A DNA stretch of 64,000 nt from Podarcis cretensis (GCA_951804945.1 OX638150.1:107942001-108006000), one strand, 5' to 3'. Counted from the stretch's first letter, positions 22,501-23,918 are shown. Notes: generated by a model from the sequence alone, not told the origin. Numbers and translations are program-made.

Positions 22501-23918
22501 AATTGTGGCTACTCTTTGGCCATGAAGGCTTGGTGGTACATGATAGCAGAGCAAACGTTGTCTGGCAGACCCTTTACCTACATGCATCTGAAGTCTAGTG
22601 CTATGAAACAATCTTAACATAGCTGCTTCTACCTCCACGCTCCCAAGGAGGGCAAGGACAAGACGGGTAACAGCTACAGCCTTTTCAGGGCTCTATATAT
22701 AAGAAGACAGAACGCAAGGCCACTGCAACCTGACAGTATCATGGAATGTGATCCTAAACATTCCCAGTAAAACAAAACACAAAAAACTGTCATCAAAACA
22801 AGAAGACCTGACAGAAATAGCTATGAAGTGAGACGTATATTCAGAACAGATCTAACATTAGACAGGAAACAAAGTAAAGGACATTTATTTTGTAGTGAGC
22901 TTATTTGCTGAGAATACTCCAGATGCAGTATGATTGAAGCTGAGCTGGACAGGTGCTCAACAAAGCCTGATCAGGTCCGTGGTATGAAACAAAACCAGAC
23001 ACGATATACTACACCGTGTATCCAGATACACAAAAAGATGCAGGAAAAAGGAGTGTTTCATGAATGCTAGCGCCTCACAAAAGCCCACCAAACAGAGGCC
23101 AGATACACAGAGCTTTCAGTGTCTCCTGAGTACAGTCTGTCAAGCAGGTGGTTCAAACAGTGTGTCTGGCCCTTCACAGTGCTCCATTCTTGGGAGAAAT
23201 TGCTGAAGACAAGTGCAGGAGCACAGAACAGCATCAGCAAGGCATGACCCTCTTTCCGTGCCTGACTAAGCTCAACGATCAGTTCAACTCCAGGCATCTT
23301 CCTTCCTGTAGTGTAGACACTTCATTTGGGTTTTGGCGCAGGAAGTTTCCCACAAGCTACCTTACAAGCCTCCCTCGGGAAAAGAGCCACACTAAAGGGG
23401 TGAAAATCTACTTAACAGTTTGAGATAGGCAAGAGGCCCGATGCCTGAAAGATCCTCCTTACCCACATCACACAGCCATCTGTATCAGCAGCACCATGCA
23501 ACTTAGGCTACAGGAGAGGAAAAGAAGAGTACCGTCAGGGCTCATGTCTTGCAAGATACCTATCAACCAAGGTATGATACAACAGGTGTGAATTAAAGAT
23601 CACTGGGAAAGCAGTATTCTAGACAGTGCCTCTTCTTGGACGCAATTTGAGGGAAAGGGGGAAGTGCTTCTGTTTGGTGTTCCGTCGCGATCAAATGTGT
23701 GCACCAGATACCATCTCAGATTTCTGGTTTATCTGTTGCAAAGCTAGCTTACTCCCGGCTATCCCGGGCTCAGCAGGACAGCTCAAGTCTGAACACCGAG
23801 GCCTGATTCCATGCCCTTCACACGCTAGCAGGCAAGGCAGAACTTACTCAGATCCAGCAGCCATATCTGAATAAGATGTATCTGGTGTGGTGACTCCCAG
23901 AGGGATTGCAATGCTCAT
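1275..23918 (-). CDS. SETD5: SETD5 spliced CDS, 17 coding exons in window, 3' part outside window
   Basis: Joined exons give 2829 nt with no stop, from [24 protein letters not shown] to [10 protein letters not shown], matching recalled vertebrate SETD5; GT/GC-AG boundaries and phases are consistent. Confidence 0.97.
2639..2844. mobile_element. Tc1/mariner (pogo/Tigger-like) MITE, family A
   Basis: TIR cagtggtacctcgggtta...taacccaaggtaccactg, TA TSD; five copies in window. Confidence 0.9.
4213..4345 (-). mobile_element. tRNA-head / CR1-tail SINE (degenerate)
   Basis: CR1-type 3' end (gtagaactggaagggaccc) joined to a B-box-like segment. Confidence 0.6.
4467..4549. repeat. (GAA)n/(GGA)n polypurine microsatellite
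   Basis: Direct reading. Confidence 0.95.
4620..4778 (+). mobile_element. CORE-SINE (Squam3/MIR-like) 3' part
   Basis: gtgaccttgaaccagtcact...ctcagcctaacctacctca core, A-rich taaa tail. Confidence 0.65.
4921..5050 (-). CDS. SETD5: SETD5 coding exon 16 (130 nt)
   Basis: [43 protein letters not shown]; donor G|gttggt. Confidence 0.94.
7117..7326. mobile_element. Tc1/mariner MITE, family A
   Basis: Same TIRs, TA TSD. Confidence 0.9.
7698..7940 (-). CDS. SETD5: SETD5 coding exon 15 (243 nt)
   Basis: [61 protein letters not shown]...SSCKK. Confidence 0.96.
7965..8206. mobile_element. Tc1/mariner MITE, family A
   Basis: Same TIRs; left TSD reads AA; 24 nt from the exon 15 boundary. Confidence 0.9.
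9452..9793. mobile_element. Tc1/mariner MITE, family B, with internal agcggctt repeats
   Basis: TIR cagtggtgcctcgcaagac...gtcttgcggggcaccactg, TA TSD. Confidence 0.9.
9821..10140 (+). mobile_element. Sauria SINE, 5'-truncated
   Basis: Reverse complement of 63174-63522; ends in (accttt)n tail; 15-bp TSD taagatacatcctgc. Confidence 0.9.
10176..10496 (-). CDS. SETD5: SETD5 coding exon 14 (321 nt)
   Basis: [10 protein letters not shown]...[24 protein letters not shown]...KYPKTKK; not in ORF track (no Met). Confidence 0.94.
11179..11442 (-). CDS. SETD5: SETD5 coding exon 13 (264 nt)
   Basis: [25 protein letters not shown]...[11 protein letters not shown]; donor gtaaga. Confidence 0.95.
13639..13719 (-). 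CDS. SETD5: SETD5 coding exon 12 (81 nt), GC donor
   Basis: [27 protein letters not shown]; donor CGG|gcaagt keeps frame with TREDRK. Confidence 0.88.
13909..14149 (-). CDS. SETD5: SETD5 coding exon 11 (241 nt), post-SET
   Basis: [20 protein letters not shown]...[16 protein letters not shown]...SDNE; donor gtaaag. Confidence 0.95.
14403..14512 (-). CDS. SETD5: SETD5 coding exon 10 (110 nt), SET domain end
   Basis: [36 protein letters not shown](C); donor gtgagc. Confidence 0.95.
14982..15099 (-). CDS. SETD5: SETD5 coding exon 9 (118 nt), SET domain
   Basis: [39 protein letters not shown]; tttttag / gtaagt. Confidence 0.96.
15289..15437 (-). CDS. SETD5: SETD5 coding exon 8 (149 nt), SET domain start
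   Basis: [49 protein letters not shown]. Confidence 0.96.
15856..16098 (-). CDS. SETD5: SETD5 coding exon 7 (243 nt)
   Basis: [41 protein letters not shown]...VIGSQMQ; donor gtaaac. Confidence 0.96.
16598..16636 (-). CDS. SETD5: SETD5 39-nt in-frame microexon (coding exon 6, probably alternative)
   Basis: [13 protein letters not shown]; ctttcaacag / AAG|gtgagt; phase 0-0; resembles recalled KMT2[14 protein letters not shown]. Confidence 0.85.
17863..18050 (-). CDS. SETD5: SETD5 coding exon 5 (188 nt)
   Basis: [34 protein letters not shown]...KPKKRKR...KAKKIK (basic, NLS-like); donor gtatgt. Confidence 0.95.
18364..18422 (-). CDS. SETD5: SETD5 coding exon 4 (59 nt)
   Basis: [19 protein letters not shown]; tttgccag / gtgagt; not in ORF track. 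Confidence 0.93.
19206..19417 (-). CDS. SETD5: SETD5 coding exon 3 (212 nt; internal alternative acceptor gives 19206-19360)
   Basis: [29 protein letters not shown]...[18 protein letters not shown]; ttttcag / gtaaga. Confidence 0.93.
21122..21227 (-). CDS. SETD5: SETD5 coding exon 2 (106 nt)
   Basis: [35 protein letters not shown]; ttctgcag / gtgagt. Confidence 0.95.
23848..23918 (-). CDS. SETD5: SETD5 coding exon 1, 71 coding nt (whole exon 23848-24022 including 5'UTR)
   Basis: [23 protein letters not shown](D); acceptor ttttccccttggcag at 24023, donor GA|gtaagt. Confidence 0.95.

Follow-up and report, generated by a model that had tools for sequence, protein, structure and literature searches.

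A candidate 45-nt cassette exon with overlapping stop and start codons in the SETD5 gene of Podarcis cretensis

Stop cassettes in the SETD5 intron of mammals

SETD5 is haploinsufficient in people (PMC9912651) and has a pLI of 0.99997 (supplement of PMC13078869); its human intron 17 holds a clinically proven poison exon of 97 nt (PMC9912651), and an RBM39-dependent SETD5 exon has been reported in AML (PMC7356271). Stop-bearing cassettes are already catalogued in the mammalian intron that separates the start-codon exon from the 106-nt one, the events tabulated there being cassettes of 225 and 193 nt in human and of 97, 225, and 193 nt in mouse (PMC13276503). According to the mouse tables of PMC13078869, the 225- and 193-nt exons show PSI values of 0.13-0.77 and 0.04-0.68, respectively, with the peak in brain and testis, and at least half of mouse brain Setd5 mRNA carries a stop cassette in this intron. 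In the same tables both cassettes are predicted NMD_in, the 193-nt exon is marked in two PTBP data sets, and neither exon appears in the cycloheximide-validated column of Table S2a, while the human 193-nt exon was classed as EI_NMD in PMC7347940.

In the supplement rows for human induced neurons treated with cycloheximide, the two cassettes dropped (-0.35, FDR 3e-6, and -0.43, FDR 4e-4), a drop to be read with the caveat that cycloheximide itself alters splicing, and seven other SETD5 rows were non-significant. Among the controls in these rows, the poison rows of SRSF3, TRA2B, and HNRNPDL went up and those of SRSF6 and the two of SRSF7 did not (3/6 up), and the PTBP2 skip control went down as expected. 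As far as these rows go, the mammalian exons at this position behave as if escaping NMD.

The terminal stretch of the human 65-residue product F8WD12 was codon-compatible at 8/8 positions with the marsupial/placental alternative head read at +1, with an implied exon length of exactly 193, so that the mammalian 193-nt exon, judged from its codons, appears to carry a stop and a new ATG overlapping it, the same design as that of the lizard exon described below. From this ATG an alternative SETD5 head of 31 residues is read, with the same sequence in opossum and lemur. In the tabulated data, the human exon at chr3:9433369-9433562 is a catalogued NMD exon, yet it drops under cycloheximide and encodes an alternative SETD5 head.

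Two further systems serve for comparison. Neural SRRM4-type microexons are 3-27 nt long, coding, and frame-keeping, and carry a UGC enhancer immediately before their 3' splice site. TURBS-type sites, as in caliciviruses and influenza B BM2, use an upstream 18S-pairing UGGGA element within a tethering structure, and without a special element an overlapping AUG gives inefficient restart in eukaryotes.

Anatomy of the 45-nt unit and its host gene

The window, that is, the whole 64,000-nt stretch of the P. cretensis genome analysed here, contains SETD5 on the minus strand, on which all features below lie; 16 exon matches order the gene along it. A query with exon 4 led to named SETD5 proteins in reptiles, birds, and mammals, and the clean exon parts were identical to Podarcis lilfordi SETD5 at 716/720 residues, with an identity of about 99% to other lacertids and 90% to a boa. 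The start-codon exon (23848-24022), with the main ATG at 23918-23916 and the second Met at codon 19, ends in a phase-2 donor (GA/GTAAGT). It is followed by coding exon 4 (21122-21227), whose length of 106 nt is equal in human and mouse, and by the long form of coding exon 5 (19206-19417). Exon 5 has acceptors at 19417 and 19360, 57 nt apart, an arrangement shared with human and mouse, in which U2AF1 Q157 alters which of the two is chosen.

A 26-codon upstream ORF in the SETD5 frame is predicted from the sequence in the 5' UTR part of the start-codon exon (23934-24014), its stop lying 15 nt ahead of the main ATG; since the bird model P0208 gives an almost identical translation of the same stretch (24014-23934) in another frame, the UTR appears to be conserved there. 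Further upstream, an assembly gap of 131 N (50203-50333) lies in a GC-rich region just within SETD5 intron 1, and an exon of the neighbouring UBA and PTH2-domain gene lies at 62844-62776.

In the intron behind the start-codon exon, the first-pass annotation had proposed a 45-nt exon, and the unit was indeed present at 23507-23463 (candidate exon 23463-23507), with AG before it and the donor GTAAGG (23457-23462) after it. The accompanying signals were also found at their places, namely the branch-point-like CCCTGAC (23534-23540), whose A at 23535 is 28 nt before the exon, and a near-pure pyrimidine tract with the AG acceptor (23508-23529; 19/20 pyrimidines), and a sequence scan revealed no AG between the branch point and the 3' splice site. 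The unit accordingly has canonical 3' and 5' splice sites with a branch point. When the unit is spliced to the phase-2 donor at 23848, the frame runs for 36 codons and then reaches the proposed stop, a TGA at 23470-23468. The exon contains TGCATG (23495-23500), which is expected about 0.018 times per exon of such size, and its pyrimidine tract is CU-rich; TGCATG is an RBFOX-type motif, and CU-rich tracts contain PTBP-type motifs. Its last six bases are ATGTGG, a hexamer that occurs 20 times upstream of exon 5 in the window and precedes a GT donor once, at the end of the 45-nt exon.

The name microexon, given to the unit earlier, holds under a loose definition of up to 51 nt but fails under the SRRM4-type one, as the unit has 45 nt with an in-frame stop, and the nearest upstream TGC is at 23553, 46 nt away. 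An in-frame coding microexon was ruled out by the stop. No main-frame insert of this exon occurred among 302 SETD5-type proteins, as expected for a stop exon, so that its being missing from protein lists carries little information. The one other insert among the 302, which adds 25 residues where the first two coding exons meet in the gecko Sphaerodactylus (P0179), showed no clear match to the 45-nt exon.

Splice sites were scored with an approximate position matrix, which is not MaxEntScan. On this scale the acceptor of the 45-nt exon reached 14.2, the top value among 18 acceptors above 5 in the intron and higher than that of any coding acceptor scored in the vicinity of the 16 exon matches, and its donor reached 7.8, within the range of 5.4-12.8 for coding donors. 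Comparable units (acceptor at least 8, donor at least 6, sum at least 21.9) numbered nine on the sense strand of the 51 kb scanned, comprising four coding exons and five others including the 45-nt exon, and three on the antisense strand. Local dinucleotide shuffles of the intron produced a comparable unit in 29/500 cases and reached both exact scores in 3/500, and an in-frame stop was found in 1273/2575 45-nt windows of the intron. Because similarly strong units and stops arise by chance, the sequence of the unit is suggestive of a real exon but not decisive. The other non-coding units scoring as high lie at 18735-18520, 16889-16787, 37170-37011, and 33774-33660, and may be cassettes or 5' UTR exons.

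A 45-nt event was absent from the 9 and 15 human rows and the mouse rows listed in the mammalian supplements. Peptides of the 193-nt exon in two frames matched the lizard intron no better than shuffles, and at peptide level the 193-nt exon showed no sequence homology to the 45-nt one. When 19 alternative N-termini were set against the lizard intron, 60 shuffles were exceeded only by an intron-end read-through before exon 4 and by two short matches; the mammalian head did not beat them. The 193-nt cassette (hg38 chr3:9433369-9433562; mm10 chr6:113109423-113109616), which is listed as non-productive, nevertheless resembles the lizard exon in lying in the same intron (after the phase-2 start-codon exon and before the 106-nt exon) and in its early stop and overlapping ATG. 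It differs in that it lies near the 3' end of the intron, whereas the lizard exon is 340 nt from the 5' end, and in that its ATG needs no further exon to share the frame of exon 4, whereas the lizard ATG does. In position, though in position only, the better lizard counterpart of the 193-nt cassette is a 62-nt exon described below. The 225-nt cassette (chr3:9429826-9430051; mm10 chr6:113105916-113106141) and the mouse 97-nt one are like the lizard exon in coming first behind the start-codon exon and in having a stop, which in their case is predicted; the former is tissue-regulated and PTBP1-responsive, and a Setd5 exon of the same length (matched by length only) is depolarisation-regulated, but it is five times longer than 45 nt and lies about 800 nt from the donor. 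The lizard intron holds another candidate for this position at 22807-22578, an AG..GT unit of 230 nt that includes an in-frame stop and approaches the 225-nt cassette in length; its scores are moderate (6.5/6.5), and no support was found for it.

Gene models of related squamates

Because the sequence by itself is not decisive, the case for use of the 45-nt exon rests on the annotation of relatives. In the P. lilfordi SETD5 cluster, of which 15/23 members were listed, the model CAI5767709.1 (P0133) matched the second-frame translation of the 45-nt exon at 15/15 residues including both boundaries, its path running from exon 1 through the start-codon exon in another frame to the 45-nt exon, then to a 62-nt exon (20/20 residues) and exon 4. 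This second candidate cassette (21350-21411) has the strongest donor of the intron (AAG/GTATGT). Alternative acceptors for it lie at 21482, 21456, and 21395, and a gecko-type ORF (P0001) retains a similar stretch across its donor. At a divergence of about 3%, identities of 15/15 and 20/20 to P. lilfordi are expected with probabilities of 0.37 and 0.27 in simulation, and are thus uninformative as to constraint. CAI5767709.1 may be a predictor's path, because it joins the upstream PTH2-domain gene to SETD5, because a TGA interrupts its frame in the species of the window, and because the P. lilfordi annotation is partly ab initio, EVM having been used to combine predictors of that kind with RNA evidence (PMC10214862).

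A second type of model bears on the donor of the exon. Three of the 302 SETD5-type proteins, all RefSeq isoforms, run from Met-Trp directly into exon 5, namely XP_032997321.1 of Lacerta agilis, XP_053234436.1 of Podarcis raffonei, and XP_063147452.1 of the boa Candoia aspera. RefSeq isoform introns generally rest on RNA-seq. The Met-Trp start fits the terminal ATGTGG of the 45-nt exon, whose donor in these models would be joined to the long form of exon 5; while 32 donors in the window could yield a short Met start on exon 5, Met-Trp results from the donor of the 45-nt exon alone. The closest rival donor, at 19522 in intron 4, gives Met-Trp-Trp-Trp in this window, although the start in the relatives could derive from it if the TGG run there were shorter. 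The stretch with this donor, an ATG and a TGG run at 19533-19522, lies 104 nt ahead of exon 5 and is placed like the mammalian 137-nt intron-4 cassette. Among the species listed (15 of 40 members in one cluster), the Met-Trp form was found in 2/4 lacertids and 1/22 other squamates. The boa protein model suggests that the donor and ATG of the 45-nt exon may be common to lacertids and snakes, and the models fitting its boundaries in four species point, indirectly, to the exon being spliced in.

Searches beyond these models added little. A phmmer search with the 55-residue plus-strand frame across the 45-nt exon gave 0 matches, residues 246-290 of P0133 found no match among shorter proteins, and two short proteins sharing the SETD5 start bore no resemblance to the lizard intron. 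As for orthologous DNA, the metagenome scan returned one distant locus (L001), covering just 317 nt upstream of exon 4, and the genome and viral contig scans returned none.

Stop-start overlap and the fate of the message

A feature of the 45-nt exon that had been overlooked is the sequence TGATG (23466-23470), in which the in-frame stop TGA (23470-23468) overlaps an ATG of another frame (23468-23466). When the exon is joined to exon 4 alone, this ATG opens only eight codons; it comes into the SETD5 frame in chains that include the 62-nt exon or omit exon 4. The former chain (45-nt exon, 62-nt exon, and exon 4) is predicted to give a new head of 23 residues, and the latter (45-nt exon onto exon 5) to lose the first 57 net residues. 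Both of these annotated chains thus place the same ATG in frame, which is partly seen by selection because databases keep long ORFs. Five AUGs lie upstream of the overlapping ATG, which stands in a moderate context, with G at -3 and T at +4.

These frames bear on the earlier proposal of a reinitiated, N-truncated protein. Its simple form failed: in the mRNA joining the 45-nt exon to exon 4, the next in-frame AUG is 604 nt beyond the stop and is preceded by eight out-of-frame AUGs, and restart at the next in-frame Met was thus rejected. The squamate proteins checked lack Met112/132, which mammals, birds, and turtles have. The proposal survives in the form of the overlapping ATG, with the 62-nt exon added or exon 4 skipped. 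The overlap resembles in sequence the TGATG-type stop/start of TURBS, and in the spliced frame a TGGGA, dictated by the codons for Leu7-Gly8, precedes the stop by 85 nt; unlike the viral cases, however, the lizard one concerns a cellular spliced mRNA with a downstream frame open in some exon chains only.

With regard to decay, the stop is codon 37 (CDS nt 109-111), has a further exon junction more than 50 nt downstream and at least 13 more coding exons after it in the window, and falls within the start-proximal zone of about 200 nt in which NMD is weak. According to PMC12776119, stops near the start codon often escape NMD as far as a boundary that differs between genes and lies at about codon 22-100, and as this boundary is at codon 22-25 in LMNA and HBB, NMD could act on codon 37. 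The first-pass annotation had called the unit a poison exon and an off-switch. What is indirectly supported of this is an optional exon with an early stop, whose boundaries recur in gene models of relatives, whereas the NMD sense of the term is doubtful, given a stop so near the start and the behaviour of the stop-bearing cassettes in this intron of mammals, which reach a PSI of about 0.7 and drop under cycloheximide.

We put at about an even chance the reading that the 45-nt unit is a real optional squamate SETD5 cassette which cuts full-length output with weak decay, mainly by translational shut-off. Inclusion after the start-codon exon would turn the SETD5 start into that of a short upstream ORF ending at codon 37, and the mRNA would yield no full-length SETD5, mostly through translational shut-off rather than strong decay, NMD being probably weak at so start-proximal a stop. 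PTBP- and RBFOX-type factors may regulate inclusion, to judge from the motifs. Any protein from the overlapping ATG, its N-terminus exchanged or shortened, would be scarce at best and limited to isoforms including the 62-nt exon or lacking exon 4.

The exon might instead be a classical poison exon, whose inclusion leads to efficient NMD and less SETD5 mRNA, as the many exon junctions downstream, a codon 37 past the NMD-dead zone of LMNA and HBB (PMC12776119), the EI_NMD class of the human 193-nt exon (PMC7347940), the NMD_in predictions for both mammalian exons, and the clinical precedent in intron 17 (PMC9912651) would agree with. It shares with the AS-NMD poison exons of SRSF3, TRA2B, and HNRNPDL and the 97-nt exon of SETD5 intron 17 the nature of an optional premature-stop exon in a dosage-sensitive gene; those exons, however, rise under cycloheximide and sit deeper in the ORF, whereas the lizard stop is start-proximal and overlaps a start, and the mammalian exons of the same intron stand at high PSI untreated, drop with cycloheximide, and are missing from the validated mouse column (PMC13078869, Table S2a). 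We therefore regard this reading as unlikely. About as unlikely, in our view, is a strong-looking pseudo-exon, rarely or never used and functionless, or an annotation artefact: the chance occurrence of comparable units (three antisense, 29/500 shuffles) and of stops in half of the windows, the lack of a 45-nt event in the mammalian rows listed and of likeness to the mammalian exon peptides, and the two unmatched protein searches across the exon fit such noise, but four independent-looking models from four species, one of them a snake, fit the boundaries, and the one donor among 32 that gives Met-Trp is that of this exon.

That the exon serves to end the first ORF so that translation resumes from the overlapping ATG, with the 23-residue head or the loss of 57 net residues, seems to us very unlikely. 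The in-frame ATG of both annotated chains, the Met-Trp start in lacertids and a boa, and the stop/ATG design of the mammalian 193-nt exon with its head identical in opossum and lemur would speak for such a switch; an in-frame ATG is, however, expected anyway from protein databases that show long-ORF chains only, and the five upstream AUGs, the moderate context, the eight codons with exon 4 alone, and the inefficiency of overlapping-AUG restart all count against it. A broader conjecture, which we consider quite improbable, is that squamates and therians each evolved, from unrelated intron sequence, a stop-and-restart cassette in the first coding intron of SETD5, escaping NMD through its start-proximal position, by which splicing picks full-length SETD5, none, or SETD5 with a new N-terminus.

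Our literature search, which covered sources outside subscription papers, returned no report of a squamate or reptile SETD5 exon or of the stop-start overlap. Taken alone, the lizard exon, which adds a stop-restart twist to the cassettes catalogued in mammals, is a modest gain. The mammalian exons, being NMD-catalogued, dropping under cycloheximide in the supplement rows, and in one case bearing a conserved alternative start, have a bearing on whether blocking them with antisense oligonucleotides raises SETD5 protein. If, as the preferred reading of a real squamate cassette would have it, the lizard relies on a very small exon of its own to the same end, SETD5 dose control at this intron would be either old or have arisen twice, which argues for function.
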